NCBI GenBank assembly: GCA_024277355.1
Contig: JAJRVL010000009.1
Location: 1-32,000 of the forward strand
DNA from: an archaeon
Lineage (GTDB): Archaea > Iainarchaeota > Iainarchaeia > Iainarchaeales > 1-14-0-10-31-34
Reading direction: 5' to 3'
Length of the DNA: 32,000 nt
In this document: in pieces, positions 775 to 31,786 of the stretch
Layout of the letters: every line of letters begins with the position of its first letter
Position numbering within the stretch: the stretch's first letter is position 1
The notes under the pieces: generated by a model
The model's database searches: none
Seen by the model: the letters and a program-made list of their open reading frames with translations, nothing else
Told to the model about the DNA's origin: nothing
Translations under genes and position numbers: made by a program

Positions 775-1006
775 ATCTTATGTATACTTTCAAAAAACTA
801 TTTAAAGATTTTTATAAAAATATTATTCTGGTATTGGGAGTTAAGGAAGCAAGTTATACTGTGAAACAGATCCCTGGCTTGCTTTTTTAACAACTATTTT
901 TTCAGAAAAATGAAATCACCAAAAATGCTTTTTGCTTTGCAAAAAATTCTTGTTTTTTAAAATTCAAATCCTTTATTAATTTTTCCAGACAATTTTGTTA
1001 TTGATT

Positions 1007-1057
1007 GTTTTTGTTTTAACAAAAACGTTTTTAATTAAACTTTTTTTAAAAAAGTTT
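1007..1057. repeat. Composite AT-rich palindromic element (B-type hairpin + TTTTTAATTAAAC + A-type hairpin) ending 3 nt before tRNA-Ser
   Basis: gtttttgttttaacaaaaac (1007-1026) is followed by gtttttaattaaac, then aaactttttttaaaaaagttt (1037-1057). A further B-type hairpin, tttttgctttgcaaaaa, lies at about 929-945. TTAATTAAA falls at about -30 to -22 relative to tRNA +1, so it may double as a TATA box. Confidence 0.7.
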
Positions 1058-1060
1058 ACT

Positions 1061-1143
1061 GCAGAGGTGGCGGAGCGGTTTAACGCGCCGGCCTTGAGAG
1101 CCGGTGTCCTTTGGACGCGCGAGTTCGAATCTCGTCCTCTGCG
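1061..1143 (+). tRNA. tRNA-Ser(UGA), class II with long variable arm
   Basis: Acceptor gcagagg/cctctgc, anticodon stem ccggc/gccgg with loop cTTGAga, variable stem gtcc/ggac, T arm gcgag-ttcgaat-ctcgt, discriminator G. Confidence 0.9.
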
Positions 1144-1258
1144 TTCGCGCTTTCGAGCGCGAGAACCGAAGCACTGCCTTCGCTGTTGCTCGGCAGAGCA
1201 TGCACAGCTTTATGCTGTGCACTGGTGCCAGCTGACAGAGGCAGTTGATGTGATGTGA
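1144..1258 (+). other. GC-rich structured trailer downstream of tRNA-Ser(UGA), function unknown
   Basis: About 115 nt that is clearly more GC-rich than its surroundings. Hairpins: tcgcgc-tttcga-gcgcga, ctgcc..ggcag, and a perfect 9-bp stem gtgcacagc-tttat-gctgtgcac followed by CTG. Track ORFs 995..1258 and 1080..1340 are artefacts of this region. Confidence 0.4.
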
Positions 1259-1264
1259 TAAAAA

Positions 1265-1831
1265 ATGAAAAAAATTTTTTTGTTAATTGTTTTTGGATTA
1301 ATTCTTTCAGGATGTATTCAAAACAATACTGAAAATACAAACACAGAAAATAACTTAAATAATTTAAATGAAATAAAAGAAAATAATTCAGGAGGAGTTG
1401 AATTGAGTAATACAGTAGAAAAAGGAGATTTAATTAAAGTTGAATATATAGGAAAGTTTCCTGACACAAAAGAAGTTTTTGATAAAAGTGAAGGCAGAGG
1501 CCCATTAGAGTTTACAGCAGGCGCAGGACAAATGATTAAAGGATTTGATGATGCAGTTATAGGCATGAAATTAAATGAAGAAAAAACTGTAATTATTGCT
1601 CCAGAAGATGCTTATGGTTCAGCTGATTCAGGAAAAAAAGCTGAAGTCCCTATAGCTCAAATTCAAGGAGAAGAAGAAGTAAAAGTTGGTTCAACTCTTT
1701 TTGCAGGAAATGGCCAGCAGGGAACAGTAATTGAAATAAAAGATGATATAGCAGTAATTGAATTCAAGCATCCAATGGCAGGAAAAACATTAGAGTTCTG
1801 GATTAAAGTTGTGGAAATAACTAAAGCTTAA
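1265..1831 (+). CDS. FKBP-type peptidyl-prolyl cis-trans isomerase, predicted lipoprotein
   Basis: N-terminal signal peptide with lipobox LILSGC. FKBP core motifs GDLIKVEYIGKF...GPLEFTAGAGQMIKGFDDAVIGMKLNEEK...PEDAYG and C-terminal HPMAGKTLEFWIKVVEI (SlyD-like). Confidence 0.85.
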   Translation: MKKIFLLIVFGLILSGCIQNNTENTNTENNLNNLNEIKENNSGGVELSNTVEKGDLIKVEYIGKFPDTKEVFDKSEGRGPLEFTAGAGQMIKGFDDAVIGMKLNEEKTVIIAPEDAYGSADSGKKAEVPIAQIQGEEEVKVGSTLFAGNGQQGTVIEIKDDIAVIEFKHPMAGKTLEFWIKVVEITKA

Positions 1832-1846
1832 TCCTTTTTCTTTTTT

Positions 1847-3019
1847 TTAATTTTGTTTTATTTTTTTATATGCTTCTCTAAAAGGAATTCCTTGTTTAAC
1901 TAATTTATGAATTTCTTTAACTGAATGCATTTCTTTTGTTATTCCTTTACTGCAGTTTTCTTTGTTTACTTTTGTTTTATTCAATACAATTTTTATTATT
2001 TTAAGGCAGTTTTTTGTATTGTTAAATCCTTTTATTACTGGCTCTTTAGTTAACTGAAAATCCCTATTATATCCTGAAATAAGGTTTCCAATAATATTTT
2101 TTATTTGAAATTCAAAAGCTAAATTTTCATAATATTTTGCCCTGACTATTTCTAATGCATCAGGATTTTTTTTATGAGGCATAATTGAACTTCCAGTGCA
2201 AATTTCTTTATTTAATTCAATAAAACCAAATTCACTCATGTTAAACAAAAGCATATCAGAAGAAATTTTATTTAAATCAAACATTACTTGGTTTAATGAA
2301 TTAAGAATAATTGACTCAAATTTTCCCCGGCTGTTCTGAACATAAATTGAATTATTCTGTATTTTTTTAAATCCAAGCAATTTTTTTGTTAATTTCCTGT
2401 CAGTTTTTACCGGAAGATTATATCCTGCGCCTGTTCCTAAAGGACTTTGGTCAAGAAGTTTATTAACAAAAAAAATTAATTTTTTGTTATCCTGCATTGA
2501 TTCAATAAAAGCCTGGCTCCATAAGCCAGCAGAAGAAGGAACTGCTTTCTGCATATGAGTATAGCCTGGCATTGCAATTTTTCCGTATTTTTTTTTAAAC
2601 AAAAATAATTCTTTAATTAATGCATCAATTAACTTAATTACATCTTTTATTTCATTTTTGTAATACAACCTTAATGCAGTTAAAACCTGATCATTCCTTG
2701 ACCTTAAAGCATGAATTTTTTTTCCTGTTTTACTTAATTTTTTTACAAGAAAATTTTCTATTGAAGTATGACAGTCTTCATCTTCTTTTTTTATTTTAAA
2801 TTTTTTTTGTTTGTCAAGTTTAATTATTTCATTTAATGCATTAATTATTTCACTGCATTCTTTTTTATTCAGTAATCCTTTTTTTTTCAGCATTATTGCG
2901 TGTGCAATTGAAGCAATACAGTCATATTTAATCAGTTTCTTGTCTAATAAAAAATCATTGCCTACAGTAAACTCTTCTATTTCTTTATTTAGTTTTAATT
3001 TTTTTTCCCATAACTTCAT
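1847..3019 (-). CDS. argH: Argininosuccinate lyase (compact, 390 aa)
   Basis: Fumarate-lyase family motifs [10 protein letters not shown] and [13 protein letters not shown]-terminus is ASL-like (LWEKK...ASIAHAIML). The start overlaps the argG stop by 4 nt. It appears tens of residues shorter than the ASLs I recall, ending soon after [11 protein letters not shown]. Confidence 0.9.
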
Positions 3020-4236
3020 TTTTTTTCACTACTCAATTTAAACCTTAATCCGGTAATTTTAATGAATCCTTTTGCATCTTCCTGATTAAAATTTCCTTCT
3101 TCTTCCATACTGGAAATTTTCTGATTATACAAAGAGTTTTTTGATTCCCTTCCTGAAATAATTATGTTTCCTTTGTATAATGAAAGAAAAACTTTTCCTG
3201 AAACAGTTTTCTGACTTTTGTTTACTGCAGTCATTAAAAATTCCATTTCAGGAGAAAACCAAAATCCATTATAAATTATTTTTGCAATCAAAGGAACAAA
3301 TAATTCTTTTAAATGCATTACTTCTTTATCCAAAGTAATTGATTCTAAATCTTTATGTGCATTAAATAAAATTGTTCCAGCAGGGGTTTCATAAACTCCC
3401 CTTGATTTTATTCCGATAAAACGATTTTCCACTAAATCAATTCTTCCAATTCCGTTTTCTCCACCTAATTTATTCAAATATTTAAATAATTCCAGTGAAC
3501 CTTTAACTTCTTTTTTTTCATTTAAATTAATTACTTTAACTGGAATTCCTTTTTCAAATTCAATACAAATTTCAGTTTCTTTTTCTAAAGCATTTTTTGG
3601 AGATTTAGTTAACTTAAACATTTCTTCTTTTGGTTTATTTAATGGATTTTCAAGTATTCCTGACTCAAAACTTAAATGCATTAAATTTTCATCCATGCTA
3701 AAAGGTTTTTCAAGACTTGCATCAATAGGAATTCCTTCTTTTTTTGCATAATTAATTAAATCTCCCCTTCCTTTGAATTGTTCAAGCCAGTCTTTTTCTT
3801 TCCATGGACTAATAATTTCAGCTTCAGGCAAAAATTTCATCCAGGTTAACTCAAACCTTACTTGATCATTTCCTTTTCCTGTACATCCATGAGCAAGAAC
3901 ATTAGTTTTTTCTTTTACTGCTATTTCAACTTGTTTTTTTGCAATCAAAGGCCTTGCTAAAGCAGTTCCTAATAAATATTTTCCTTCATAAACTGCATTA
4001 GCTTTTAATGATTCAAAAATAAATTCTTCAACAAACTCTTTTTTTAAATCTTCAACAAAAACTTTTTTTGCGCCAATCTCAAAAGCTTTTTCTTTTACTT
4101 TTTCAAAGTTCTCTTTCTGCCCTATATCAGCTACAAAAGCAATTACTTCAAATCCTTTATTTACAAGCCATTTCAAAATTACAGAAGTATCTAATCCTCC
4201 GCTGTAAGCCAAAACAACTTTCTTGTTTTTTTCCAT
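3016..4236 (-). CDS. argG: Argininosuccinate synthase
   Basis: N-terminal ATP-PPase motif [12 protein letters not shown], plus [13 protein letters not shown] and [16 protein letters not shown]. Length is typical at 406 aa. Confidence 0.95.
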
Positions 4237-4364
4237 TAAAATTACTTGTTTAAAGAAGTTATTATTTCTGATGACCCAAACAAAACTAAAAATAACTTTT
4301 TTGTTTCAAATAAAACAAAAGTATGAAATTAAACTAAATTGTTCTAAAAGAAACATTTAAATAT

Positions 4365-5021: not shown

Positions 5022-5068
5022 ATTCAACTGGCTTTTCTTTTAAAATACTTTTTTTTCTTAATTTTTTA

Positions 5069-5431: not shown

Positions 5432-5529
5432 TAAGCTTTTTTAATTCTTTTTATTGCATTATACTGTAAAGGTGAATTAAATTAAATTTCATTTCTTAAA
5501 TTTATTAAGGCAAATAAAAAATTCTTTTA

Positions 5530-5882: not shown

Positions 5883-5992
5883 CAAAACAAAGAAAAATAA
5901 AAATAAGTTAATTAAGAAATCACAAAATAAAAATTAATTAAAATAAAGTGAAATGAAAAAATCAATAAAAAAATTAAATTTAAGTGAAATAA

Positions 5993-6550: not shown

Positions 6551-6605
6551 GTTTTTGCTTTAGCAAAAACCGTTTTTTGATTAAACTTTTTTTTGAAAAA
6601 AGTTT
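6551..6605. repeat. Composite palindromic element (B + A hairpins) ending 3 nt before tRNA-Ser(GGA)
   Basis: gtttttgctttagcaaaaac (6551-6570), then cgttttttgatt, then aaacttttttttgaaaaaagttt (6583-6605). The architecture and the ...aaaagtttact|gcagagg junction match those at 1007-1060. Confidence 0.7.
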
Positions 6606-6608
6606 ACT

Positions 6609-6692: not shown

Positions 6693-6747
6693 TTCCGAGC
6701 TACTCCTCGGAAGGGAGCGTGCTATCTTACGATAGCACTGCATAAAC
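6693..6747 (+). other. Conserved double-hairpin 3' trailer (H1 ttccgag-ctactc-ctcggaa; H2 tgctatc-ttac-gatagca; then CTGCATAAAC)
   Basis: It starts directly after the tRNA discriminator. Its H2 sequence and the downstream CTGC.ATAAAC are shared with the trailers at 8779-8843, 21713-21766 (-) and 28373-28429 (-). Confidence 0.6.
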
Positions 6748-6815
6748 TTTTAAGAAAAGTTGTATCAAAAAATGGCTAACGCCAAAAACAACTTTTAAGA
6801 AATTTAATCAAAAAG
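6744..6815. repeat. Two inverted-orientation A-type palindromic units separated by the hairpin tggctaacgcca
   Basis: aaacttttaagaaaagttgtatcaaaaaa (6744-6772) and the degenerate aacaacttttaagaaatttaatcaaaaag (about 6787-6815). Orientation is opposite to the unit upstream of the tRNA. Confidence 0.55.
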
Positions 6816-8636: not shown

Positions 8637-8719
8637 GCAGGGTTAGCCAAGCGGTCAACGGCGGTAGGTTGAGGGCCTATGACTTAGTGTCTACGGGGGT
8701 TCGAATCCTCCACTCTGCA
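8637..8719 (+). tRNA. tRNA-Leu(GAG), class II
   Basis: Acceptor gcagggt/actctgc (one G-U), D stem gcc/ggc, anticodon stem gtagg/cctat with loop ttGAGgg, variable stem gac/gtc, T arm ggggg-ttcgaat-cctcc, discriminator A. Confidence 0.9.
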
Positions 8720-8720
8720 A

Positions 8721-8750
8721 TTTTTGATCAAACTTTTTTTTAAAAAGTTT
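8721..8750. repeat. A-type palindromic unit between tRNA-Leu and a duplicated tRNA 3' fragment
   Basis: tttttgatcaaacttttttttaaaaagttt. Confidence 0.7.
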
Positions 8751-8778
8751 GCGGGCAGTTTGAATCCTCCACTCTGCA
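8751..8778 (+). pseudogene. Relic copy of the tRNA-Leu 3' end (T loop + acceptor 3' strand)
   Basis: gcgggcagtttgaatcctccactctgca versus the genuine acgggggttcgaatcctccactctgca (8693-8719). The last 17 nt are identical, and the relic can no longer form a T stem. Confidence 0.75.
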
Positions 8779-8843
8779 TTAACGGTTTTGTCCGCGAATA
8801 ACGCGTGCTATTTTTGCTTTGCTCAATAGCGCACTGCAATAAA
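8779..8843 (+). other. Double-hairpin trailer, variant with an enlarged H2 loop
   Basis: cgcg-aataa-cgcg, then gtgctatt-tttgctttgctc-aatagcgcac, then TGCAATAAA. The H2 loop sequence recurs at 31950-31975 in the rRNA spacer. Confidence 0.5.
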
Positions 8844-12151: not shown

Positions 12152-12339
12152 GGGCCTGTAGCCTAGTGGATAAGGCATCAGCCTTCTAAACTTTTTTCGC
12201 AAAAAAGTTTAATCAAAAAAACCTTTTTCAAAAAAAGGTTTATCAAAAACGTTTTTGCTTTGCAAAAACTATTGATTTTTTTTGGTTTGGAAATAGTTAA
12301 GATAGCTGAGGATCGTGGGTTCGAATCCTCCCAGGCCCG
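12152..12339 (+). tRNA. tRNA-Arg(UCU) interrupted by a 115-nt intron at the canonical 37/38 position
   Basis: Exon 1 is gggcctg-ta-gcct-agtggata-aggc-a-tcagc-cttcta. Exon 2 is a-gctga-ggatc-gtggg-ttcgaat-cctcc-caggccc-g. Acceptor and anticodon stems are perfect; there is one T-stem mismatch (U50/C64). Confidence 0.85.
12189..12303 (+). other. BHB intron of tRNA-Arg, built almost entirely from three palindromic repeat units
   Basis: BHB: the central helix joins nt 33-35 (ttc) to intron aag (12299-12301). The 3-nt bulges are t-a-a (12187-12189) and a-t-a (12302-12304). The outer helix pairs acttttttc (12190-12198) with ggaaatagt (12289-12297). The body reads aaacttttttcgcaaaaaagttt|aatcaaaaa|aacctttttcaaaaaaaggttt|atcaaaaac|gtttttgctttgcaaaaac. 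Confidence 0.75.
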
Positions 12340-12405
12340 TAAACTTTTAAGAAAATAAGATTTTTGATTGAGTTTGCATTTTGACAGCATGACTGAATGA
12401 AATGA

Positions 12406-12440
12406 AGTCGTGCATCGTTGTGTCGCGGGCGAAACCGGGA
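12406..12440 (+). other. Conserved RNA-flank motif AGTCGTGCATCGT + hairpin with GCGAAA loop
   Basis: agtcgtgcatcgttgtg-tcgcgg-gcgaaa-ccggga here. On the minus strand of the rRNA spacer, agtcgtgcatcgtgct-taaacg-gcgaaa-cgttta occurs at 31862-31895, and the same sequence with a preceding A-T instead of A-G occurs at 31465-31498. The stems differ but keep their pairing. Confidence 0.5.
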
Positions 12441-14285: not shown

Positions 14286-14303
14286 TTTGATTCCTTTTTT
14301 TTT

Positions 14304-14335
14304 GTTTTTGATAAACCTTTTTTTGAAAAAGGTTT
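14304..14335. repeat. A-type palindromic unit in the ATPase-permease junction
   Basis: gtttttgataaacctttttttgaaaaaggttt. It is flanked by tgattcct+T-run on both sides (14288-14295 and 14339-14346). Confidence 0.65.
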
Positions 14336-15301
14336 TTATGATTCCTCTTTTTGCACGTTTTTTATTCCTTCAGCTTTTTTTCCAGTTAAATTCAAAAAAA
14401 CATTTTCTAAGTCTGGTTCTTTTATTGTGGTTTTTGTTACTGCAAAATTATTTGCTTTAACTATTAAACTTATTTTAGATAAAGCAGTTATTTCATTTTT
14501 TCCAATAAAAGAAAAATTTACTATTTGTTTATTAATGTAAACTTTTCCAAAAGCCTTATTTAATTCTTCTTCAAGTTTTTTTGTTGCAGGTTTATCTAAT
14601 TCAAAAACAAAATTTTTTTCTCCGCCAAACTTGTCAATTAATTTTCCAGGAGAATCACATACAAAAATTTTTCCTTCTAAAATTAATGCAATTCTATTGC
14701 ATAGTTCTTGTGCTTCATCCATATAATGAGTTGTAATAAACAAAGTTTTTCCTTTGCTTTTTAATTCCCTTAATTTTTTCCATAATAATCTTCTCATGTC
14801 AGGATCTAATCCTACAGTTGGTTCATCTAAAAAAATAAATGAAGGATTATAAATCAAAGAACAAGCAATATTCAGCATTCTTCTGTATCCTCCTGATAAA
14901 TTTTCTGCTTTTCTTTTTCTAAAATAACTTAAGTTAAGCCATTCCAATAAAAAATCAGTTCTTTGCTTTAATTCTTTTCCTTTTATGCCGTATAATGAAC
15001 CAAAAAAAACAAGGTTTTCTTCAACAGAAAAAAAACGATAAAATGATTCTTCTTGCGGAATAAAAGCAACATGTTTCCTTAATTCCATTTCTTTTGGCTT
15101 GAATTTCCCAAAAAATTTTGCTTTTCCTGCATCCTGTAAAGCTAATCCATTTAATATTTTCATTAAAGTGCTTTTGCCGGCTCCATTCGGTCCTAACAAA
15201 CCAAATATTTCACTTTTATTTACTTCAAGGTTTACATCCCTTAAAACTTTCTGTTTTCCGTAAGCTTTAGAAATATTCTCTGTTTTCAATGCTATTGACA
15301 T
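14336..15301 (-). CDS. ABC transporter ATP-binding protein
   Basis: Walker A GPNGAGKST, signature LSGGYRRML, Walker B FIFLDEPTVGLD, H-loop TTHYMDE. The track start at 15343 is TTG; the ATG at 15301 (MSIALKTENISKAYG) fits the family N-terminus. Confidence 0.9.
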   Translation of the reverse strand: MSIALKTENISKAYGKQKVLRDVNLEVNKSEIFGLLGPNGAGKSTLMKILNGLALQDAGKAKFFGKFKPKEMELRKHVAFIPQEESFYRFFSVEENLVFFGSLYGIKGKELKQRTDFLLEWLNLSYFRKRKAENLSGGYRRMLNIACSLIYNPSFIFLDEPTVGLDPDMRRLLWKKLRELKSKGKTLFITTHYMDEAQELCNRIALILEGKIFVCDSPGKLIDKFGGEKNFVFELDKPATKKLEEELNKAFGKVYINKQIVNFSFIGKNEITALSKISLIVKANNFAVTKTTIKEPDLENVFLNLTGKKAEGIKNVQKEES

Positions 15302-15359: not shown

Positions 15360-16964
15360 ATGAATTCAAAAAAAATTCTTTCAAATGAATTAACTAAAAT
15401 AATTAATTCTCCTGAAATAACACTAAAAAAATTACAGGAATTAATTGAAATTCCTCCTGCAAAAGAATTAGGGGATTATTCTTTACCTTGCTTTAAGTTA
15501 ACTAAAGCATTAAAAAAAAATCCCCAAGAAATTGCATTATTTTTAAAAGAAAAATTAATTAAAATTCCTTTAATTGATTCAATTGAAACAAAAGGCCCTT
15601 ACCTTAATTTTTTCTTAAATCATTCTTTTATTGCAAACAAATTAATTCCAGAAATATTAAAGAAAAAAGATTTATTTGGAAAACAAAAAAATTTAAATAA
15701 AAAAGTAATGATTGAATATTCTTCTCCTAACACAAACAAGCCTTTGCATATAGGTCATTTAAGAAATGATTCAATTGGAATGAGTTTAAATAATTTATTT
15801 GAATTTAATGGATTTAAATGCATTAAATCAATTTTAATTAATGACCGAGGAGTGCATATTTCAAAATCAATGTTAGCTTACCAAAAATTTGGTAAAGGAA
15901 AAAAACCACAAAAAAAATCAGATCATTTTGTTGGAGATTATTATGTTTTATTTAATCAAAAAGCAAAAGATAATCCTGAATTAGAAAAACAAGCTTTAGA
16001 GTTGCTTGCAAAATGGGAAAAAAAAGACAAAGACACTTTAAGTTTATGGAAAAAAATGAATGACTGGAGTATTAAAGGATTATTCCAGACATACAAAAAA
16101 TTTGGTTCTGAATTTAATGTAATATACAAAGAATCAGATTATTTTAATAAAGGAAAAAAAATAATTGAATCAGGACTCCAAAAAAAAGTTTTTGAAAAAG
16201 ATAAAGAACAAAACATTATTGTTGACTTAGAAAAATTTAATTTAGGAAAAAAAGTTGTTTTAAGAGCAGATGGAACTTCAATTTATTTCACTAATGACTT
16301 AATTTTGTCAGTAGAAAAATTTAAACATAAATTAGAAAAAAATTTATGGGTTGTTGGTTCAGAACGAAACTTTTATTTTAAACAATTATTTAAAACTTTA
16401 GAATTACTTGGATTTGAATGGATAAATAAATGCAAACATTACAGTTATGGAATGGTTTATTTGCCTGAAGGGAAAATGAAGTCAAGAGAAGGAAAAGTAG
16501 TTGATGCAGACAATTTAATTGAAGAATTAACTGAAATGGCTAAAAAAGAATTAAAGAAAAGAAATTCTTCTTTATCAGAAAAAGAATTAAATAAGAGAGC
16601 TGAAGTAATCGGCATTGGAGCAATAAAATTCTTTTTATTAAAAGTTGATGCAGTAAAAGATATTCATTTTAATCCTGAAGAAAGCATTTCTTTTGAAGGA
16701 GAAACTTCTGCTTTTATTCAGTATTCTTATGCAAGATGCAAAAGTATTTTAAAAAAATCAAAAAAATCAGGAAACCCTGTTTTTAGTAATTTAACTGAAG
16801 AAGAAAAAAACTTAATTTCAAAACTTTCTTTGTTTGAAGAAAAAGTTATTCTTGCATTTAATCTGTTGTCCCCTCATATCTTGTGTCATTATTTACTTGA
16901 TTTAACCAGTTCATTTAATTCTTTTTATCAGAACTGCAAAGTATTAAATGAAGAAAAAAATTAA
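15360..16964 (+). CDS. argS: Arginyl-tRNA synthetase, main body (stops 30 codons before the conserved C-terminus)
   Basis: Class I HIGH motif SSPNTNKPLHIGHLRN, an MSK-like GKMKSREGK, and a DALR-type anticodon-binding region. It stops at the TAA (16962-16964) right after an A7 tract. Confidence 0.9.
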   Translation: MNSKKILSNELTKIINSPEITLKKLQELIEIPPAKELGDYSLPCFKLTKALKKNPQEIALFLKEKLIKIPLIDSIETKGPYLNFFLNHSFIANKLIPEILKKKDLFGKQKNLNKKVMIEYSSPNTNKPLHIGHLRNDSIGMSLNNLFEFNGFKCIKSILINDRGVHISKSMLAYQKFGKGKKPQKKSDHFVGDYYVLFNQKAKDNPELEKQALELLAKWEKKDKDTLSLWKKMNDWSIKGLFQTYKKFGSEFNVIYKESDYFNKGKKIIESGLQKKVFEKDKEQNIIVDLEKFNLGKKVVLRADGTSIYFTNDLILSVEKFKHKLEKNLWVVGSERNFYFKQLFKTLELLGFEWINKCKHYSYGMVYLPEGKMKSREGKVVDADNLIEELTEMAKKELKKRNSSLSEKELNKRAEVIGIGAIKFFLLKVDAVKDIHFNPEESISFEGETSAFIQYSYARCKSILKKSKKSGNPVFSNLTEEEKNLISKLSLFEEKVILAFNLLSPHILCHYLLDLTSSFNSFYQNCKVLNEEKN

Positions 16965-17056
16965 TGAATTCAAGATTAGCTTTAGTTGAAAGCACTTCAG
17001 TTATTTTAAATAATGGATTAAATTTACTTGGAATTAAAACTTTAAATGAAATGTGA
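16964..17056 (+). CDS. argS: Detached ArgRS C-terminal segment (30 aa) in a different reading frame
   Basis: MNSRLALVESTSVILNNGLNLLGIKTLNEM* matches the ArgRS C-terminal helix pattern (RLAL...L..GL.LLGI....M-stop). Its ATG overlaps the TAA of the main ORF (TAATG). Confidence 0.8.
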   Translation: MNSRLALVESTSVILNNGLNLLGIKTLNEM

Positions 17057-17061
17057 TTGTT

Positions 17062-18867
17062 ATGGCTAAAAAATTAAATTACAATGAAATGCTTGAAAAA
17101 TTACTTAAAAATTATTATTCTTATAACAGACAGGAATTAGGTTTATTTGAAAGAGCATTTAAAGTATCAAAAAAAAGAAAAATTTTTGAAAATGCATTAA
17201 AATTACTTAAAAAAGTTCCAATAGAAGATGAATTTGGTTCAGCTTTAATTACCAAAGCTTTTTGGTATTCAAAAGAAAAACACGCAAAACAAAAAAGGTT
17301 TTCAGGAGAACCTTTTTTTATTCATCCATATAAAACAGCTTTATATTTAACTGAACTTGAAATGGATGCTGCTTCAATTACAGCAGGTTTTTTGCATGAC
17401 GTAGTTGAAGACACTGATACTCCTTTAAGTGAAATAAGAAAAGAATTTGGAGGCGAAGTTGCTTCTCTTGTAAAAAGTTTAACTAAATTAAGACATTTTG
17501 TTGCAATAAGCAAAAGAAAAGAACATAATGTTGCATTACAAAAAATTTTGTTTGCAACAACAAAAGATTTAAGAGTAATAATAATTAAGTTAGCAGACAA
17601 ATACCATAATCTGCAAACTTTAAATCATCTTCCTCAGGAAAAACAAATTAGAATTGCAACTAATGCACTTGAATTTTATGTTCCTGTAGCAAAAAAACTT
17701 GGATTACATGAATTAGAAGATCTTTTTGAAAAAATTTGTTTTAAAACAATTAAACCAAAAATTCATTCAAAAATAAGAAAGAAAAAAAATGAAAGCATTA
17801 AAGCAAAAGAACCTGAAATTGATTTAATAATAAAAAAACTTGAACCAGAACTAAAAAAAGCAGAACTTAATGTTTCTTTCAGAAAATACAAAAGAACTGC
17901 TTACACTGTATTCAAAAAAATGACTCAAAATTTAAAGTCTTTTAATGAAATTCAGGACTGCATTGTATTAATTGCTTTAACTGAAACAAGAGAACAATGT
18001 TATGAATTACTTGGATTACTGCATAACATGTTTTCTCCTATTCCCTTAAAATTCAGAGATCATATTGCTATTTCTCAGTTTCCTTTATATCAGTCAATTC
18101 ACACTACAGTAATTGGCCCAAAACACACTCCAGTTAAAATTTATATTAGAACAAAAAAAATGGATGCTTTAGTTAAACACGGAGTAACAGAACTGCTTAG
18201 AAGAACTAAAACAGAAAATGATGTTTTCACAGAAAACATTTCTTTTTTAAATAAATTAATGTCAATTAAACTTGATGACCTTGAATCAGAACATTTTATT
18301 GATTTGCTTAAATCTGATTACCTTCAGGACAGAATTATTGTTTTTACGCCTAATGGAAATTTAATTGATTTGCCTAAAGGAGCTTCAGTAATTGATTTTG
18401 CTTATGCAGTTAATGAAAAAAAAGCAGCTAAAGCAAGAAAAGCAAGAGTTAATGGAAAATTAGTTCCTTTATGGCATAAATTAAGCAATGGAAATTTAGT
18501 TGAAGTTGTTGCAGGAAAAAAAATTCAGGTTTCAAAAGTATGGCAAAATTTTGCTATTTCAGTTAAAGCAAGAGAAGAAATAGAAAAATATTTAAAGAAA
18601 AAAAGAATAGTAAAAGAAAAAATGCCTTTTGTTAATTTAGAATTCAAGGCAATAGACAGAATTGGCTTATTAAATGATTTCACTGAAGCTTTTGTTTCAG
18701 TTCAGGCAAATATTTTTTCTGCTGAATTAAGAACAAATGATAAAAGCGGGTTAGGAATAAACTTTTTTACTTTAGAATTATCTGATCCAAAAAAACTTAA
18801 TGTTTTATTAAAAAAACTAAAAAAAATTAAAGGAGTAATAGAAATAAAATCAAATTTTATAGAATGA
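17062..18867 (+). CDS. Long RelA/SpoT homolog (HD hydrolase - synthetase-like - TGS - ACT)
   Basis: HD domain GEPFFIHPYKTALYLTELEMDAASITAGFLHDVVEDT...RVIIIKLADKYHNLQTL. Synthetase-like YQSIHTTVIGPKHTPVKIYIRTKKM. TGS IIVFTPNGNLIDLPKGASVIDFAYAV. C-terminal ACT-like FKAIDRIGLLNDFTEAF. The alternative GTG start at 17053 overlaps the argS tail. Confidence 0.85.
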   Translation: MAKKLNYNEMLEKLLKNYYSYNRQELGLFERAFKVSKKRKIFENALKLLKKVPIEDEFGSALITKAFWYSKEKHAKQKRFSGEPFFIHPYKTALYLTELEMDAASITAGFLHDVVEDTDTPLSEIRKEFGGEVASLVKSLTKLRHFVAISKRKEHNVALQKILFATTKDLRVIIIKLADKYHNLQTLNHLPQEKQIRIATNALEFYVPVAKKLGLHELEDLFEKICFKTIKPKIHSKIRKKKNESIKAKEPEIDLIIKKLEPELKKAELNVSFRKYKRTAYTVFKKMTQNLKSFNEIQDCIVLIALTETREQCYELLGLLHNMFSPIPLKFRDHIAISQFPLYQSIHTTVIGPKHTPVKIYIRTKKMDALVKHGVTELLRRTKTENDVFTENISFLNKLMSIKLDDLESEHFIDLLKSDYLQDRIIVFTPNGNLIDLPKGASVIDFAYAVNEKKAAKARKARVNGKLVPLWHKLSNGNLVEVVAGKKIQVSKVWQNFAISVKAREEIEKYLKKKRIVKEKMPFVNLEFKAIDRIGLLNDFTEAFVSVQANIFSAELRTNDKSGLGINFFTLELSDPKKLNVLLKKLKKIKGVIEIKSNFIE

Positions 18868-18871
18868 CTAA

Positions 18872-18928
18872 TTAGCTGTTAATCATTTTTTTTAAGGCTT
18901 CTATATCTTCTATTTTTCCTCTCGCCAT
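18872..18928 (-). pseudogene. Displaced relic of the alaS 3' end
   Basis: The minus strand reads atg gcg aga gga aaa ata gaa gat ata gaa gcc tta aaa aaa atg att aac agc taa = MARGKIEDIEALKKMINS*. The functional alaS C-terminus is IARGKIENKDALKEIIKN*. About 45 of 54 nt are identical to 18995-19046. Confidence 0.75.
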
Positions 18929-18988
18929 CAAACTTTTTCAGAAAAAGTTTGAACAAAAACGGTTTTCGCTATGCGAAAACTATTGAAA
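18929..18988. repeat. Composite palindromic element (A + B hairpins) between the relic and the functional alaS 3' end
   Basis: caaactttttcagaaaaagtttg, then aacaaaaac, then ggttttcgctatgcgaaaact, then attgaaa. Confidence 0.7.
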
Positions 18989-21712: not shown

Positions 21713-21766
21713 GTTATAGCAGTGCTATCAAAGATAGCTCATCGTAGCCGCCAGCCAAAACTGGCG
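21713..21766 (-). other. Conserved double-hairpin trailer downstream of RNase P RNA
   Basis: The minus strand reads ccgccag-ttttgg-ctggcgg, ctacgatg, agctatc-tttg-atagc(a)ct, GCTATAAC. It aligns position by position with the 23S trailer at 28373-28429. Confidence 0.6.
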
Positions 21767-22062
21767 GGGTTGTGGAGAGTAAGCCGCTTTTTGTTTTACC
21801 AGCATTCACCTTTGCGTCTTAAAGACTTGCACTCCCAGAACATATTTCATTTCTGTTTAACCTAAAGCACGTTTCATCCTTTTTCCAGAAAACTCACTTA
21901 AAGGTCATCATAATTCTGGAATGGTTTCGTTTCTGCTCTTCAGGAAACCCTCTAAGGTTTGTTTTTGATGAAACTTTTTTTAAAAGTTTCTAGGAATGAG
22001 TGAGCGGACTTTCCTCAGCTCCATTTCGAAAAATGGTACCGTCAGCTGGTCTTCCACTACCC
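21767..22062 (-). ncRNA. rnpB: RNase P RNA
   Basis: The minus strand has CR-I GAGGAAAGTCCG (complement of 22005-22016) and a CR-V-like AAAAAGCGGCTTAC (complement of about 21779-21792). P1 pairs GGGTAGTGGAAG (22062-22051) with CTCTCCACAACCC (21779-21767). P3-like hairpin ccattt-ttcg-aaatgg; P5 CTCAC/GTGAG; internal ACAGAAA. A TTTAAAAA TATA-like box lies about 23-30 nt upstream. Confidence 0.75.
21956..21990. repeat. A-type palindromic unit embedded in the RNase P RNA specificity-domain region
   Basis: The plus strand reads ggtttgtttttgatgaaactttttttaaaagtttc. On the RNA strand it follows CR-I/P5 by about 12 nt. The near-repeat CATTCCTAG / CATTCCAG on the RNA strand brackets it plus 45 nt. Confidence 0.6.
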
Positions 22063-23123: not shown

Positions 23124-23737
23124 ATGCCTGTAAAAAAAATAAAAAAGCCTGAACCTAAAATTAATTTTTTGGATTTAGGTTTTGGTAAAGGAAAAAGATT
23201 AATTGAATTAGCTAAACGAAAACAAAGCAAAAAAAGAAAGTTAATTGGAATTGATGAAAAAAAAACACGAATTTAATTGCAAAAGAAAGAAAAAATTTAA
23301 AGTTAATTTTTGATAATGCTTTAGATTCATTAAAAAAATTTAAATCAAAGTCAGTTAAAGTAGTTAATGGAGATTTTTTACTTGGAGGATATAATCATAA
23401 ATCTAAAAATAAAACTCCTCCAGCTGATTTGTTTGAAGATTATTATTTTGCTTTAGCAGACAAATACCATAAATTTATTGAATTAGGTAAAGTTTTTACT
23501 CAAGTAAAAAGAATTTTAGTTCCAAATGGAAGATTTTATTTATCAATGTATAAAGGAAATCTGAATTATTTAAAAGAATTAACTGAAGTAAGCGGCTTTA
23601 AAATTGACAGAATTATTGAAGTAACAAAAAAGAACGCAAAAAGCAGTACTGCTAAAAAACAATTATCAGGGAAAAATTCAAAAAGTATTTCTCAAGAAAA
23701 GCACCCTATTAGAGTATTGTTAAGAAAAGAACATTAA
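23124..23737 (+). pseudogene. Class I SAM-methyltransferase-like gene, frameshifted in an A9 tract; paralog of 27594..28307
   Basis: Frame a gives MPVKKIKKPEPKINFLDLGFGKGKRLIELAKRKQSKKRKLIGIDEKKTRI* (motif I LDLGFGKG). The frame then changes within A9 (23257-23265). Frame b gives NLIAKERKNLKLIFDNALDSLKKF...VKRILVPNGRFYLS...HPIRVLLRKEH*. The two pieces are colinear with the paralog. Confidence 0.7.
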
Positions 23738-26461: not shown

Positions 26462-26472
26462 TTCCAGAATAA

Positions 26473-27483: not shown

Positions 27484-27593
27484 ATAAATTATTTCTTGCG
27501 TGAACTTTTAAAATATACATCTTTCATACAAAGTATGATAAAATAATAGTCTAAAACAACAGGCTTTTAAACTTAGAAATCCAATTCATTTTT

Positions 27594-28307: not shown

Positions 28308-28372
28308 AATCTACTGATGTCTAAACTTAAAACAAAAATCTAATTTAAAAAAAATAAGATAGTTGATACAAG

Positions 28373-28429
28373 ATATGACAGCGCTATCGAAGATAGTGCG
28401 TCGTACCCAACAGCCGAAACTGTTGTTGG
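28373..28429 (-). other. Conserved double-hairpin trailer downstream of the 23S rRNA
   Basis: The minus strand reads caacag-tttcgg-ctgttg, ggtacgacg, cactatc-ttcg-atagcg, CTGTCATATC. The 5' side of H1 overlaps the outer helix of the BHB. Confidence 0.6.
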
Positions 28430-28450
28430 CATGAAACCCAAATTAAAGAG
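28426..28450 (-). promoter_or_regulatory. 3' strand of the 23S processing stem with BHB bulge
   Basis: Minus strand CTCTTTAATTTG-G-GTTT-[CAT]-GCCAA pairs with the leader strand at 31429-31453. Confidence 0.75.
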
Positions 28451-31441
28451 TTTGAACTCAAGTTTTTAGTAGCAGTCAACTTAATATGTCGCCGTAGCTT
28501 CATACTTACATTTCTGCCCTATCAATCCAGTGTTCTACTGGTACTCTTGTCCTTATTCCTTATATTCCGCAGAATACAAGTAGTCAGGAATGATTGACTC
28601 TTTTTAGGGACCGCTTCAAGCTTAGATGCTTTCAGCTTTTATCGGTTCCGGCGTGGCTACCCAGCAACTGCCTTGTCAGACAACTGGTACACTAGAGGCC
28701 AGGACTCCACGTTCCTCTCGTACTTATGGAATCTTCCCCTCAGTCAATCGACATGTCCGATAGATAGGATCCAAACTGGCTCGCACCGTTCTTAACCCAA
28801 CTAACGTAAGGCTTTAATGAGTTAACACCTCCACCCTTGGCAGCTTATGCACTGCCAGGATGCCTTGAGACGACGGCGAGGTCGCAAACCGCGGGGTCGA
28901 TATGAGCTCTTGCCCGCGACCACTCAATTACCCCCAAGATAAGTTCACTGTTAGACTAGGCCCCCATTAAAAGGGACACTAGCGTTCGCTAGACACATCT
29001 TTCGATTCGGCTTTACTTGCTGTGCGTAAAACCGTCAAGCATGCTTTTGGTCTTGTCCTCTAAGGAGAATTTCTGACTCTCCTGAGCATACCTTTGGACA
29101 CCCCTGATATCTTTTCAGGGGTGTACCGCCCCAGTCCAACTACCCGTCTAAAGCTGTCCTCTTTCGAGTGAGCAATATGCTTTTTTAAGGATGGTGTTCC
29201 ATTGTTGTCTCCACAATTCCTGACGAAACTGCTTCGAAGACTACCATCTACACTGGACGTAAAAAACCATATTACAACATCAGATTGTAGTAAACCTCTG
29301 TGGGGTCTTCTCTTCCCATCGGACATTCGAGGTATATTCACCTCGCAATGAGTTCATTGGGCCCAAATTAGGGACAGTGGGAATCTCGTTACTTCATTGG
29401 TGCAAGCCGGCATTAAACCGGCAAGGTATTACGCTACCGTGAGAGCCTCAGAGTTAGGCCCGCTCTTCACCAGAGCTTAGCTCCATTGAACTGAAGTTTA
29501 ACTTACTGGCAGTGAGCAGAAGTCAGCCTCTATACACACCATTGCTGGCTTGCAGAGACCTGTGTTTTTGTTAAACAGTCGGACTCCCTTTGTCATTGAA
29601 ACCTGCAATTTACTTAATCGCAGGCACCCCTTATACCGAAGATACAGGGCTATTTTGCCGAATTCCCTTAATTTGGTTTCCCCAAGACGCCTAGGCCTTT
29701 TCAGCCAGGGGCACTTTTCCTAGTTCTTGGTACGGTTACATAAAATCCATTCTGATTTCCTTTTTATGAAACCCAGGCCTCAATTGAAAATTGCTTCTAT
29801 TCCTGAATTTAATCTGCTTCTCATCATTACAATTCTCCACAGATTTATTTCAGTTAAATGCACAGACAAGTGCATTCAATCTAGCCCAAGCTGTTAGAAA
29901 TCAGACTATCGTTGCCGTGAGTATTTATGTAGTACAGGAATATGAACCTGTTTCCCTTTCGTCCACGTCGTGTTACGAGTGGCCTTAGGACCGACTAACC
30001 CTTAGCTAATGATTAGCGCTAAGGAACCCTTGCCCTTTCGGCGGAAAGAATTCTCATCTTTCTATTGTTATTACTAGCGCGAGGATCCATATTCGCGACA
30101 GATCCACAAGAAATTTCTCTCTTGCTTCTGCTCTATCGTGACACCTCCCTACTCCATTTGTTTTCTATTGAAAACAAGGCTATGGTATCGGCAGCTGGTT
30201 TTAGCCCAGTGAATTTTCAAGACCTTTATTCTAGGTAGGTGAGCTGTTACGCACTCTTTAAAGGATGGCTGCTTCTAAGCAAACCTCCCTACTGTATTAG
30301 AACAAAGATACTTTTCGTGTTTACACTTAACCAGCATTTTTGGGCCTTAACCACAGTTTAGGTTGTTCCCTTCTTGGAACAAGGGCTTACCCCTTGCCCC
30401 CTACTCTAACCTTCTACGACGATTATAGATTTGGAGTTTAACGAAAAAGCTGGAAGTTTCCGACCAGTACTTTCTAATTAGTATCTCGACACCATAATCT
30501 ATCTCCAGTTAGGCTAGCCTTAGGGCTAATTCGAGAGGAGCCCGCTATGGCCATGTTCGATTGGCATTTAACTCCTACTCCCAGGTCACCAAAGTAGATA
30601 GACTAACACTTGTTGCGGACCTCCACCATTTTGTAAAACGGCTTCATCCTGCCCAGGAGTAACTCACATGGCTTCGGGTCTTACCGTTGTGACTAAAGCA
30701 GTTTAATACTTTCAGCCTGATTCTAAAAGAACTGCGCTGACTCGCTTTCGCTGCGGTTTCAAAGTGAAAACTTCTTAACCTTGCCACAAAGGCAACCTCC
30801 CCCGCTCGTGATTCAAGACGAACGATATGACACTGATCAAATTCTTTCGTAATTATTTCTCAATAACTTCCTTCAAGAATTCTCTTTTCTTTAATGCCAT
30901 ATCTTGCTATAACCAGTTAGTTTCAAGCGCTTTTAACTCCCTGTTAAGGGTACTTTTCAACTTTCCCTCGCGGTACTAGTATGCTATCGGACTTGAGTAG
31001 TATTTAGTGTTAGGAGTTAATGTCTCCCGTATTCACGCGCAAAAACCAATGCACGCTACTCTTAACACGAAAAATTATCCTTTTGAATTTTTTGTTTACA
31101 AGGCTTTCACTCTCTTTGGCGCTGCTTTCCAGCAGACTTCAACTAAATTTAAAGGATATAAATCGCTCTACACCACATCTCCCTTAAATTACTTTAAGGG
31201 ATTCAGTTTGCTCTCTTCTGTCTTCGGTCGACCCTAATAACAGAATCATATTCATTTTCTTTTCCTTCAGGTACTAAGATGCTTCAATTCCCTGAGTTGC
31301 CCTTCCTTTCGGAATAATTCAGAAATCCCTGGCTCAAAGATTGCATTGCATCTCACCAAGGCTTATCGCAGCTTGCCACGTCCTTCATCAGCTCTCAAGC
31401 CTAGTTATCCACTAACTGGCGTAATGAACTCTTTAATTTGA
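28434..31441 (-). rRNA. rrl: 23S (LSU) rRNA, about 3.0 kb, no large intron evident
   Basis: On the minus strand: 5' region GATGAAGGACGTGGCAAGCTGCGATAAGCC (complement of 31361-31390), sarcin-ricin loop AGTACGAGAGGAAC (complement of 28711-28724), and 3' region GCTGAAAGCATCTAAGC (complement of 28620-28636). The ends are set by the BHB bulges. Confidence 0.9.
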
Positions 31442-31453
31442 TAGGTTTGCCAA
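31429..31453 (-). promoter_or_regulatory. 5' strand of the 23S processing stem with BHB bulge
   Basis: Minus strand TTGGC-AAAC-[CTA]-T-CAAATTAAAGAG. There are 12 bp plus one G-U, a 3-nt bulge, a 4-bp helix, a 3-nt bulge on the other strand, then a 5-bp helix. Confidence 0.75.
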
Positions 31454-31464
31454 TGCATCAACCG

Positions 31465-31496
31465 TAAACGTTTCGCCGTTTAAGCACGATGCACGA
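31465..31496. repeat. 32-bp exact direct repeat, copy A (just upstream of the 23S processing stem)
   Basis: taaacgtttcgccgtttaagcacgatgcacga, identical to 31862-31893. Confidence 0.9.
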
Positions 31497-31704
31497 TTTC
31501 GCTTGCGCTCAATCCTGCTGCCTTAACAGCAAAAGTTTCTAACGATTGCTTCCCAAAGGAAAAAAACTTCCCAGGTGCATTCATCTGTTGTGAAAATAAT
31601 AAATTGATGAATATAATTTTTGTGATAATTTTTTTTTATGCTTAATACTTTTATTTTATTTTTTTAAATTTTTTTCTTGTTTATTTTCCAAACTATTTTT
31701 TTTA

Positions 31705-31786
31705 TTTTTTGATACAACTTTTTCTAAAAGTTGTTTTTGATCAAACTTTTTTTTGTTTTTGATAAACCTTTTTTCTAAAAAGGTTT
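31705..31786. repeat. Array of three A-type palindromic units abutting the 3' end of tRNA-Ala
   Basis: ttttttgatacaactttttctaaaagttg | tttttgatcaaactttttttt (left arm only) | gtttttgataaaccttttttctaaaaaggttt. Confidence 0.7.

Follow-up and report, generated by a model that had tools for sequence, protein, structure and literature searches.

Bacterial REP/BIME repeats are palindromes of 20–40 bp with a conserved unpaired tag, GTAG or CGTC, at one end, and are associated with RAYT enzymes. They are multi-copy, clustered and mostly extragenic, located downstream of genes or between cistrons, with occasional intragenic copies. The palindromic elements of Rickettsia and the repeats of Methanocaldococcus jannaschii are short palindromes that can be located within genes, RNA genes among them, without inactivating these. 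Neisseria Correia elements are short repeats between genes that provide promoters. REPs are believed to function as RNA hairpins (PMC3733652). The insertion sequence ISDra2 inserts 3' of TTGAT, a motif that also precedes its left-end hairpin (PMC2806898). The tRNA promoters of Nanoarchaeum are positioned 26–27 nt upstream and yield leaderless tRNAs (PMC10100707). In halovirus HF2, intergenic repeats carry promoters (PMC8707807), and in Mimiviridae, transcripts follow a 'hairpin rule' and end at AT-rich palindromes directly after genes of an AT-rich genome (PMC4402537).

The DNA analyzed here, a stretch of 32,000 nucleotides (the window), originates from a small, AT-rich, Diapherotrites-like DPANN archaeon with a genome GC content of 28%. 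It contains about 19 short hairpin units at the positions given in a preliminary description, and every site listed there was read and matches that description. The likeness to REP/BIME repeats proposed there extends to tagged palindromes of similar size that are copied, clustered and arrayed between genes and occasionally within them. It is a loose likeness, which does not extend to the archaeal host, the AT-rich stem, the tag (ATCAAAAA / TTTTTGAT instead of GTAG or CGTC), the arrays, which are head-to-tail and not alternating, the concentration at stable-RNA genes, or the core-promoter-like character of one orientation, and RAYT was not found in the loci examined. The HF2 repeats and the Correia elements are likewise short intergenic sources of promoters, but differ in sequence and host and lack the hairpin-plus-tag design. 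Near-identical tagged hairpins also occur in giant-virus and virophage contigs, and the Mimiviridae palindromes are similarly AT-rich and adjacent to gene 3' ends in an AT-rich genome. The resemblance is most likely convergence or chance, because the viruses in question infect eukaryotes and transcribe their genes with an apparatus of their own.

The A unit is approximately 30 nt long and combines an AT-rich hairpin of 9–11 bp with an unpaired tag whose sequence is ATCAAAAA(C), or GTTTTTGAT on the opposite strand. The second hairpin, B (GTTTTYGC-loop-GCRAAAAC), is built from the tag sequence and is often joined to an A unit. The A-core pattern AAAC[CT]T3-9 N0-5 A3-9 [GA]GTTT occurs nine times in the window and the B pattern four times, in addition to one B-like palindrome. 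The tag by itself, TTTTTGAT, is unremarkable (26 matches, 17.5 expected). In combination with the stem, AAAARGTTTN{0,1}ATCAAAAA has eight matches and AAACYTTTTTN{0,8}AAAAARGTTT six, both against 0.00 expected (100 dinucleotide shuffles for the former). A covariance model, R1, consisting of a 10-bp hairpin and the 9-nt tag, identifies eight units in the window at E<0.01 (starting at 1027, 6573, 8720, 12217, 14304, 18927, 21961 and 31755); its matches in the whole set of loci reach 55 bits. A ninth A unit (12187-12218) is identical to a 37-bit R1 match in the related locus L147, and degenerate units at 6742-6815, 12341-12372 and 31705-31755 raise the total to about 19. The units do combine into mosaics, as claimed previously, since a 57-nt A-B composite can be aligned across four loci of the window. 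The A and B units form a single, non-chance sequence family with a conserved structure.

The stems of the A units are kept paired by compensatory changes. Overall, 98.3% of stem cells are paired; 4 of the 10 stem pairs are changed on both sides (26 cells) and none on one side only, and the covariation score was reached by 0 of 500 shuffles. Because the half-sites themselves covary (AAACC/GGTTT, ACAAC/GTTGT, CAACC/GGTTG), it is complementarity, and not a sequence, that is conserved. It is therefore hardly probable that a dimeric DNA-binding regulator of stable-RNA genes binds the unit at AAAC-N13-15-GTTT half-sites overlapping the core promoter. Such a binding site would fit palindromes that are concentrated near stable-RNA genes and placed between a TATA-like tag and the transcription start, but it leaves tandem arrays and the copies within RNA genes and an intron unexplained.

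Both tRNA-Ser genes are preceded by a B-A module. Upstream of tRNA-Ser(TGA), the module consists of the B hairpin GTTTTTGTTTTAACAAAAAC (1007..1026, no strand assigned) and an A unit (1027..1060, minus strand; R1 score of 49.7 bits, E=4e-6), which on the plus strand reads TTTTTAATTAAAC-T7-A6-GTTT and whose tag is a near-consensus TATA box (TTTTTAAT). The B-like palindrome TTTTTGCTTTGCAAAAA (929..945, no strand assigned), located 116 nt upstream of the gene, was recognized by reading the sequence, as the strict B pattern misses it. The module of tRNA-Ser(GGA) contains a B hairpin (6551..6570, no strand assigned) and an A unit (6573..6608, minus strand; 43.3 bits) with a computed RNA fold of -6.3 kcal/mol (z=-4.2). 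In both cases the hairpin ends 3 nt before +1 (positions 1061 and 6609), in agreement with the preliminary description. The two genes are paralogs and share the module along with the gene (68 nt, 84% identity); in L147, an upstream unit is missing from the ortholog of tRNA-Ser(GGA). On the 3' side of tRNA-Ser(GGA), two degenerate A units in hairpin-then-tag order (6742..6815, plus strand) follow the GC-rich trailer, and give a weak R1 match of 24.1 bits at 6742-6772.

The upstream copies fit the TATA-box reading well, although it was initially played down. In six of seven cases from four genomes, the tag TTTTT[G/A]AT ends 22–27 nt before tRNA +1, which matches the geometry of the normal TTTTTAAA promoter in the same genomes; this promoter, unrelated to the units, ends 27 nt before +1 at tRNA-Arg. 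The tag is thus located where an archaeal TATA box should be, which implies tRNA leaders of 0–5 nt. Nanoarchaeum equitans similarly has a TATA-like box about 26–30 nt upstream of tRNA +1 and leaderless or near-leaderless tRNAs (PMC10100707). In the present archaeon, however, RNase P RNA is present, the module is used by some tRNA genes only, and the promoter is carried on a repeated palindromic element. The companion idea that the T-runs are oligo-T terminators is weakened: runs of five or more T are not avoided in the sense strands of ORFs (127 observed, 100 expected), and oligo-T is therefore a poor terminator here.

An A unit (8720..8753, minus strand; 52.1 bits) lies directly 3' of tRNA-Leu. 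It is followed by a pseudo-copy of the tRNA 3' end comprising the T-arm and acceptor strand (8754..8779, plus strand; 21 nt with 95% identity to 8699-8719). L143 and L145 share this arrangement, with a neighboring protein of just 58–64% identity. The tRNA-Arg(TCT) gene has an intron of about 115 nt with A unit 1 at its 5' end (12185..12220), A unit 2 (12217..12250; 53.5 bits) and a B hairpin followed by TATTGA (12251..12275), all on the plus strand. A degenerate A unit (12341..12372, plus strand) starts 1 nt past the tRNA 3' end, where the G1 ortholog has an intact A unit. A head-to-tail array on the minus strand (31705..31788; 53.3 bits), in which a complete A unit (31755-31788) is joined by a half unit and an A unit variant with an ACAAC stem, begins 1 nt after tRNA-Ala in the spacer before the 23S gene. 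The units of tRNA-Ala and tRNA-Arg thus begin 1 nt after the discriminator base, which favors a role in the 3' trailer.

The polarity rule proposed earlier, according to which the tag is distal to the RNA gene, holds at most sites: on the 5' side of both tRNA-Ser genes and on the 3' side of the second tRNA-Ser, tRNA-Arg and tRNA-Ala genes, also in relatives. It breaks at the tRNA-Leu 3' copy (8720-8753), the tag of which is proximal. On downstream copies, a putative promoter would point into the RNA gene in the antisense direction. The reported concentration at stable-RNA genes stands when counted by unit, as 11 of the 15 units in intergenic DNA are no more than 120 nt away from an RNA gene, compared to 39% of intergenic space (p=0.007). 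It is weaker by site: six of nine hand-grouped independent sites are near an RNA gene (p of about 0.09, an estimate and not a computed value). The enrichment is moderate.

Three further sites are occupied in the window and empty in relatives. The first is an A unit (21961..21992, minus strand; 35.0 bits) within the RNase P RNA gene, where the Rfam model places helix P8. It is a 24-nt insertion specific to the window and is missing from G1, G2 and G3 (loci L001, L002 and L020), in which an A unit that the window lacks is instead placed directly 3' of RNase P. Like the palindromes of Rickettsia and M. jannaschii, the unit is tolerated inside an RNA gene, but units of the present family are much shorter and mostly non-coding, and the likeness is one of description. 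The second is an A unit (14304..14337, minus strand; 53.5 bits) flanked by AGGAATCA repeats, between the stop codon of an ABC ATPase and the start codon of the permease. Orthologous ABC junctions contain 0, 0, 1, 1 and 4 units: none in L002 and L147, one in the window and four in L149. The third is an A-B composite (18927..18986, plus strand; 51.8 bits) between the AlaRS stop codon and a diverged 59-nt copy of the AlaRS 3' end, the flanking copies being 83% identical; L002 and L012 have no such element at the AlaRS 3' end. In G1, the C-terminus of AlaRS is encoded by element-like sequence.

The presence/absence comparison suggested in the preliminary description thus uncovers empty orthologous sites at RNase P (three relatives), the ABC junction (two) and AlaRS (two), contrary to what pure promoter or terminator signals would give. 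As that description held, the copies in RNase P RNA, the tRNA intron and the operon go beyond a promoter or terminator reading. The intron arrays vary as well: the window has A-A-B, L149 has A-A-A-B, L147 combines A with other hairpins, and the hairpins of G1, G3 and L148 are unrelated. The second intron copy (12217-12250) is 100% identical to the unlinked ABC-junction copy (14304-14337), and 14296-14335 matches 31747-31786 over 40 nt with 95% identity, flank included. Because of this turnover at orthologous sites and the identical unlinked copies, the units are not merely fixed signals.

It is accordingly unlikely, if with an appreciable chance of being right, that the A unit is plain promoter and terminator punctuation of stable-RNA units without mobility, its copies stemming from gene duplications and evolving in place, with the odd ones being local accidents. 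The exact promoter geometry, the occupation of the same sites in many genomes, the tRNA-Leu arrangement kept in distant relatives, the module shared by the tRNA-Ser paralogs, the uniformity of three strains and the failure to find a mobilizing enzyme in the window and about 155 kb of related loci are all consistent with such signals. The single-genome RNase P insertion, the junction with 0, 1 or 4 units, the varying intron arrays, the identity of the intron and operon copies, the poor termination expected of oligo-T and the antisense direction of a promoter on downstream copies argue against them.

The flanking duplications noted previously are real at tRNA-Leu and AlaRS, but scars of tRNA-targeted integration fit them at least as well as target-site duplications do. 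Their lengths, from 0 to 59 nt, are unlike any single transposition chemistry. The hairpins could be the ends, or attachment-site parts, of islands integrated site-specifically at the 3' ends of tRNAs and other genes. At the G1 tRNA-Arg gene, a 1.15-kb Fic cassette lies between repeats of about 60–70 nt (by reading) that consist of the tRNA 3' end and an A unit, and in L149 an AbiEii island has tRNA-Ser on one side and, on the other, a pseudo tRNA-Ser 3' end with an A unit behind it. Even so, this origin is decidedly improbable for the family: flanking repeats are missing from most units, among them those in the tRNA-Ser promoters, the arrays of the intron and the copy in RNase P, no integrase was found in the window or about 155 kb of related loci, one 'island' would be just 33 nt long and conserved in three lineages, and promoter geometry and stem covariation are left unexplained.

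In accordance with the preliminary description, a domain search of the window ORFs finds no transposase or integrase domain, and no transposase, RAYT or integrase was detected in about 155 kb of related loci. A true archaeal REP or IS200/IS605-type system, in which a RAYT-like enzyme encoded elsewhere mobilizes the units as single-stranded DNA, is improbable. The TTGAT in the tag and the hairpin would then represent the cleavage or target site and the subterminal hairpin of a Y1 (HUH) transposase. A palindrome that carries a conserved unpaired tag on one side resembles REPs (PMC3733652), and TTGAT located 5' of the hairpin on one strand resembles the insertion site and left end of ISDra2 (PMC2806898); the arrays, the insertion of units into A-runs and the identity of unlinked copies point the same way. 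Against this stand the lack of a Y1 transposase domain in the window and related loci examined, strand orientations of about 8 to 6 without visible lagging-strand bias, and duplications flanking several copies, which Y1 transposition does not make. Unlike IS ends, the units form arrays and no left-end/right-end pair, and the hairpin abuts the tag (0–1 nt); the TTGAT match may be a coincidence at 28% GC.

R1 matches occur in all nine lineages sampled (the window, G1, G2, G3, L143, L145, L147, L148 and L149). No match was obtained in six more distant DPANN loci (L003, L005, L006, L007, L015 and L021), and L004 gave a single weak one (E=0.086). The units recur at largely the same few sites across seven genomes, without the scatter expected of a freely transposing element. 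No hairpin indels were found among three near-identical strains (99.9%) over 11–14 kb. Intron unit 1, 100% identical among the window, L147 and L149, and the tRNA-Leu arrangement are conserved far beyond neutral expectation, which indicates function at fixed sites or gene conversion.

We put at about even the chance that the units are a clade-specific, REP-like family of tagged palindromes, partly co-opted as tRNA promoters and 3'-trailer hairpins. Like bacterial REP-type repeats, such units would be copied to unlinked sites, stacked as arrays, and gained or lost at orthologous sites, while their self-complementarity would be maintained throughout. The copying, which we infer to be active, might be performed by a trans-acting enzyme or by recombination or gene conversion between copies. 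Units would persist chiefly at the few non-coding positions where a compact genome tolerates them, namely next to stable-RNA genes or in their introns, at one operon junction and at one convergent gene pair, and may have acquired roles there. In the tag-then-hairpin orientation, the tag would serve as a TATA box and the hairpin would fill the interval between it and the start, so that tRNA transcripts would begin 0–5 nt before +1. In the hairpin-then-tag orientation, the unit would be the stem-loop that comes first in a 3' trailer or an intercistronic spacer, and could protect the 3' end or serve as a termination-like signal, as does the REP in the malE-malF spacer of E. coli.

The A unit consists of a hairpin with a stem of 9–11 bp, (N)AAAC(C/T)T4-6, a loop of 1–3 nt, and a following unpaired tag, (N)ATCAAAAA(C); on the opposite strand it reads GTTTTTGAT(N)AAAC. 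In the B unit, GTTTTYGC-loop-GCRAAAAC, the tag sequence is in effect paired to its own complement. A 57-nt A-B composite is present at four loci of the window and also in relatives. The window holds ~19 units in its 32 kb, with the copies clustered at few sites, and the strict motifs occur 6–9 times against 0 expected. The described sequence is found at every site listed in the preliminary description. The position that it called N is the outermost base pair, which covaries (T-A, C-G, G-C, A-T). The units fold as RNA with energies of -6 to -8 kcal/mol (z=-3.7 to -4.9).

The preliminary description proposed modelling the palindromes by covariance. The resulting model of the A unit, R1, comprises a 10-bp hairpin and the 9-nt tag, and recovers units in the window and its relatives with stems paired through compensatory changes. 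At E<0.01, it matches eight full units in the window, and units are found in every relative lineage. An R1 search of six more distant DPANN loci, AT-rich ones included, returned no units, and locus L004 gave a lone weak match (E=0.086). The share of paired cells in the R1 alignment is 98.3%, a value favoured by the fitting of the alignment to the model, and pairing falls to 31–73% when the 3' partner is slid. Two-sided changes affect 4 of the 10 stem pairs (26 cells), and one-sided changes affect none. The palindromes might be read as paired half-sites of a regulator; we rejected this because the half-sites covary.

The window is an archaeal segment with a GC content of ~28%. Its stable-RNA genes are two tRNA-Ser, tRNA-Leu, tRNA-Arg(TCT) with a ~115-nt intron, RNase P RNA, 23S rRNA, and tRNA-Ala; the tRNA-Arg gene was found by Infernal and missed by ARAGORN. 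The window proteins have housekeeping functions (AlaRS, ArgRS, a RelA/SpoT homolog, an ABC-2 transporter pair, arginine-pathway enzymes, NadA), and domains of transposases or integrases are absent from all of them. Diapherotrites-like DPANN assemblies are the closest genomes, at 63–84% protein identity. The comparison covers the window and ~10–20 kb pieces of relatives: G1 (loci L001, L010, and L011, 99.9% alike), G2 (L002), G3 (L020 and L012), and loci L143, L145, L146, L147, L148, and L149. The neighbouring VIT1 protein is conserved too widely to single out relatives.

Across ~155 kb from seven genomes, units recur in the same kinds of location, namely the 5' and 3' flanks of tRNA genes, the intron of tRNA-Arg, the 3' flank of RNase P, the ABC ATPase/permease junction, and the 3' end of AlaRS. 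Spacing is tight where a unit precedes a tRNA gene: the 8-mer TTTTT[G/A]AT ends 22–27 nt before tRNA +1 in six of seven cases (tRNA-Ser(TGA) and tRNA-Ser(GGA) of the window, L147, L148, and two tRNAs of L149), and the base after the hairpin is a purine in most of these copies. The element-free tRNA-Arg promoter of the same genomes, TTTTTAAA, ends 27 nt before +1. The tag at tRNA-Ser(TGA) of the window, TTTTTAAT, is a better TATA box. Since archaeal TATA boxes are centred ~26 nt from the start site, the tag spacing predicts transcript starts 0–5 nt before +1. The upstream A unit is a candidate archaeal core promoter, with starts predicted from geometry. The tag spacing recalls the fixed promoter placement of Nanoarchaeum, although RNase P is present here (PMC10100707).

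Every unit carries T4–8 runs on both strands, which could by themselves be read as oligo-T terminators. However, the sense strands of ORFs show no depletion of runs of at least five T (127 versus 100 expected; for at least seven T, 20 versus 14), and T5–T8 runs also lie within the conserved tRNA-Arg intron. Therefore, oligo-T alone is probably not a strong stop signal in this organism, and we rejected it as a sufficient reading. Over all ORF sense strands of the window, A and T homopolymers are both in excess (runs of at least six A, 215 versus 151 expected; at least six T, 48 versus 36). Downstream units always present the hairpin first. At tRNA-Ala and tRNA-Arg they begin 1 nt past the discriminator base, and at RNase P RNA immediately behind the gene; they are putative RNA-level trailer hairpins for the definition or protection of 3' ends. 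The intercistronic ABC copies bring to mind the E. coli malE-malF spacer, which contains a REP.

Two GC-rich repeats accompany the stable-RNA genes. The first is a hairpin, G[TC]GCTATC-loop-GATAGCAC-TGC(A), usually followed by TAA or ATAA, at positions 6721–6741, 21719–21738 (-), 8805–8837, and 28380–28410 (-) of the window. Its copies are located 3' of tRNA-Ser(GGA), the tRNA-Leu pseudo-end, RNase P, and 23S; the hairpin is kept in relatives and is also found in tRNA trailers of L147, L148, L149, and L001. It may be the signal that actually directs 3'-end formation or processing in stable-RNA units; an Rfam search of the GC-rich trailers at a permissive threshold gave chance-level matches only. 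The second, AAACGTTTCGCCGTTTAAGCACGATGCACGA...GCTCAGTCC(G/T)GCTG, starts with an A-like AAACG...CGTTT hairpin. It forms direct repeats on either side of tRNA-Ala (31465–31520 and 31866–31920) and flanks other RNA genes in either orientation (reverse complement at 12373–12440; L001 5460–5515; L149, just 3' of the tRNA at 12340). Between tRNA-Ala and 23S extends a very AT-rich spacer of ~350 nt with three A units (31437–31787), and the 23S gene may have its own promoter instead of being co-transcribed with 16S and tRNA-Ala.

Some copies are conserved well past neutral expectation. Intron unit 1 of tRNA-Arg is identical in three genomes, and L143 and L145 retain the arrangement of tRNA-Leu, A unit, and pseudo-3'-end even though their neighbouring protein is just 58–64% identical. 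The elements also look functional and site-bound. Comparison of orthologous loci for presence and absence, the test put forward in the preliminary description, nevertheless reveals empty sites in relatives. The ABC junction has no unit in G2 and L147, where the stop and start codons almost overlap, one unit each in the window and G1, and four in L149, where the called permease gene extends across them. The unit upstream of tRNA-Ser(GGA) is present in the window, L148, and L149, and absent from the L147 ortholog. For the orthologous tRNA-Arg intron, the window has A-A-B and L149 has A-A-A-B; L147 combines A with other hairpins, and the introns of G1, G3, and L148 are made of unrelated hairpins. 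Unlinked window copies at 12217–12250 and 14304–14337 are identical, and the segments 14296–14335 and 31747–31786 are 95% identical, including 9 nt past the tag. No unit indels separate L001, L010, and L011, which are 99.9% identical. Given this turnover at orthologous sites, the A and B elements do not appear to be fixed signals, and we regard that explanation as unlikely.

Turnover extends to the RNase P RNA gene. In the window, a 24-nt insertion, GAAACTTTTAAAAAAAGTTTCATC, precedes an internal A-run, and G1, G2, and G3 are without it. Placed on the Rfam model, the insert takes the position of helix P8, which the relatives do not have. The hairpin is less likely to be an ancestral P8, because it shows the whole signature of an A unit, the tag included, and an A-rich linker is all that three relatives have at this position. 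Conversely, an A unit directly follows the gene in G1, G2, and G3 and is absent from the window. All four RNase P RNAs of the clade are devoid of P8, the window's repeat-derived hairpin being the sole exception. The G1 RNase P RNA (L001 1688–2071) has two insertions of its own, ~57 nt each: one is GC-rich and located in the 5' hairpin, and the other comprises three small hairpins, A-like units among them.

Other spacers and introns of the clade also vary. Between RNase P and AlaRS, each relative carries different inserts of small basic ORFs (L001 2300–2690; L002 9040–9500; L020 8320–8680), and the window carries none; the G1 insert has a copy of the AlaRS promoter region (AAAACCAATAAATTTAATTACTT) on either side. 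A 750-nt spacer of the window contains remnants of a broken N6/N4 DNA methylase gene (23124–23737), and the same spacer measures 130 nt in L002. Introns of 80–130 nt are common in tRNA genes (window 12152–12339; L148 15338–15501 and 16644–16824; L012 9326–9529) and contain small hairpins of several types, such as CTTTTTCTTTTT-loop-AAAAAGAAAAAG; ARAGORN misses these genes.

The duplicated gene ends that had been noted around copies are real at three sites: tRNA-Leu (21 nt, 95% identity; flanking repeats there span 21–26 nt), the AlaRS 3' end (59 nt, 83% identity), and the ABC junction (~10–12 nt). The RNase P copy and the intron arrays have no flanking repeats. At the AlaRS site of the window, the untranslated copy downstream is similar to the only C-terminus that G2 and G3 have, and G1 has its own 13-nt repeat, with a new C-terminus encoded by element-like sequence. 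The flanking repeats match better within than between genomes and therefore reflect independent events or gene conversion; their varied lengths do not fit one transposition chemistry. In three divergent genomes, an A unit comes after tRNA-Leu, and behind it a decaying duplicate of the T-arm and acceptor 3' strand of that tRNA (window 8699–8779; L143 1395–1470; L145 1010–1095). Each pseudo-copy resembles the tRNA of its own genome, a pattern that points to gene conversion, to repeated events, or to a small fragment that is transcribed.

Larger insertions are also found at tRNA ends. G1 has a 1.15-kb insertion at the tRNA-Arg 3' end (L001 12340–13526), with Fic/DOC as the sole gene and no integrase. 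Its flanking direct repeats, ~60–70 nt long as we read them, combine the 3' end of the tRNA with an A unit and the beginning of the GC-rich repeat. In L149, tRNA-Ser and a pseudo tRNA-Ser 3' end enclose an island (16140–18505) that carries AbiEii together with unknown genes. An A unit comes after the pseudo-end, along with a GC hairpin, in the classic layout of tRNA-targeted integration. Gene-end integration does occur in the clade. Integration scars account for some sites, not for most units.

The palindrome with a one-sided unpaired tag is an architecture common to A units and REPs (PMC3733652). A units are short (20–40 bp) hairpin-forming imperfect palindromes; their conserved unpaired tag, however, is ATCAAAAA(C) or GTTTTTGAT rather than GTAG/CGTC, and their arrays run head-to-tail rather than alternating in orientation with defined linkers as in BIMEs. 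Nor do they have the fixed-length target-site duplications that go with the terminal inverted repeats of MITEs, as their flanking repeats range from 0 to 59 nt. Because the tag sequence and array organisation depart from REP/BIME and the duplications from MITEs, we file the family as one that works like a partly domesticated REP family and is not a member of REP/BIME. What the preliminary description observed stands, and its interpretation is supported in part. We found no prior description of these repeats in DPANN in the literature. In our judgement, it is about as likely as not that the units are a copied family of REP type whose promoter and trailer roles were co-opted.

In ISDra2, TTGAT is the target and cleavage motif and precedes the left-end hairpin; A units likewise have TTGAT within the tag and an adjoining hairpin (PMC2806898). 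As to the other traits of IS200/IS605 ends, no TnpA was seen, some copies have flanking repeats, and orientation is ~8 to 6. Neither a RAYT (Y1 transposase) gene nor another mobilising enzyme was found in the window or related loci (~155 kb), and no parent autonomous IS was seen in the sequences examined. We regard a true Y1-mobilised system as improbable. With little confidence, we speculate that this could be the first archaeal REP-like system, in which a Y1/HUH enzyme from another part of these DPANN genomes would mobilise the units in single-stranded form, with the TTGAT-containing tag as cleavage guide, and the host would have domesticated them as portable core promoters for nearly leaderless tRNAs, trailer hairpins, and one replacement helix at the P8 position.

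A near-identical tagged hairpin, AAACTTTTTAGAAAAAAGTTT(T/A)ATCAAAAA, occurs in multiple copies, directly after stop codons, on AT-rich IMG/VR contigs (L041, L084/L053, L092, L093, L094), with R1 scores of up to 52 bits. L041 encodes NCLDV major capsid proteins and L092 Sputnik-type virophage capsids; the syntenic L093 and L094 have the hairpin in the same spacers, with some copies oppositely oriented. We set homology with these giant-virus and virophage hairpins aside because the contigs were selected by a 17-nt pattern, from which the high scores partly result. The resemblance is probably convergence with the giant-virus "hairpin rule".

The A and B units defeat tRNA finders, as ARAGORN does not detect tRNA-Arg, and can mislead gene callers, as in the L149 permease. 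In these reduced genomes, helices derived from repeats are tolerated within RNase P RNA and tRNA introns, which may also recruit them. The family would be an archaeal counterpart of REP-type repeats with its own TATA-like tag. The non-coding DNA of DPANN archaea is almost unstudied, and the family would offer a testable handle on the starts and ends of their stable-RNA genes.
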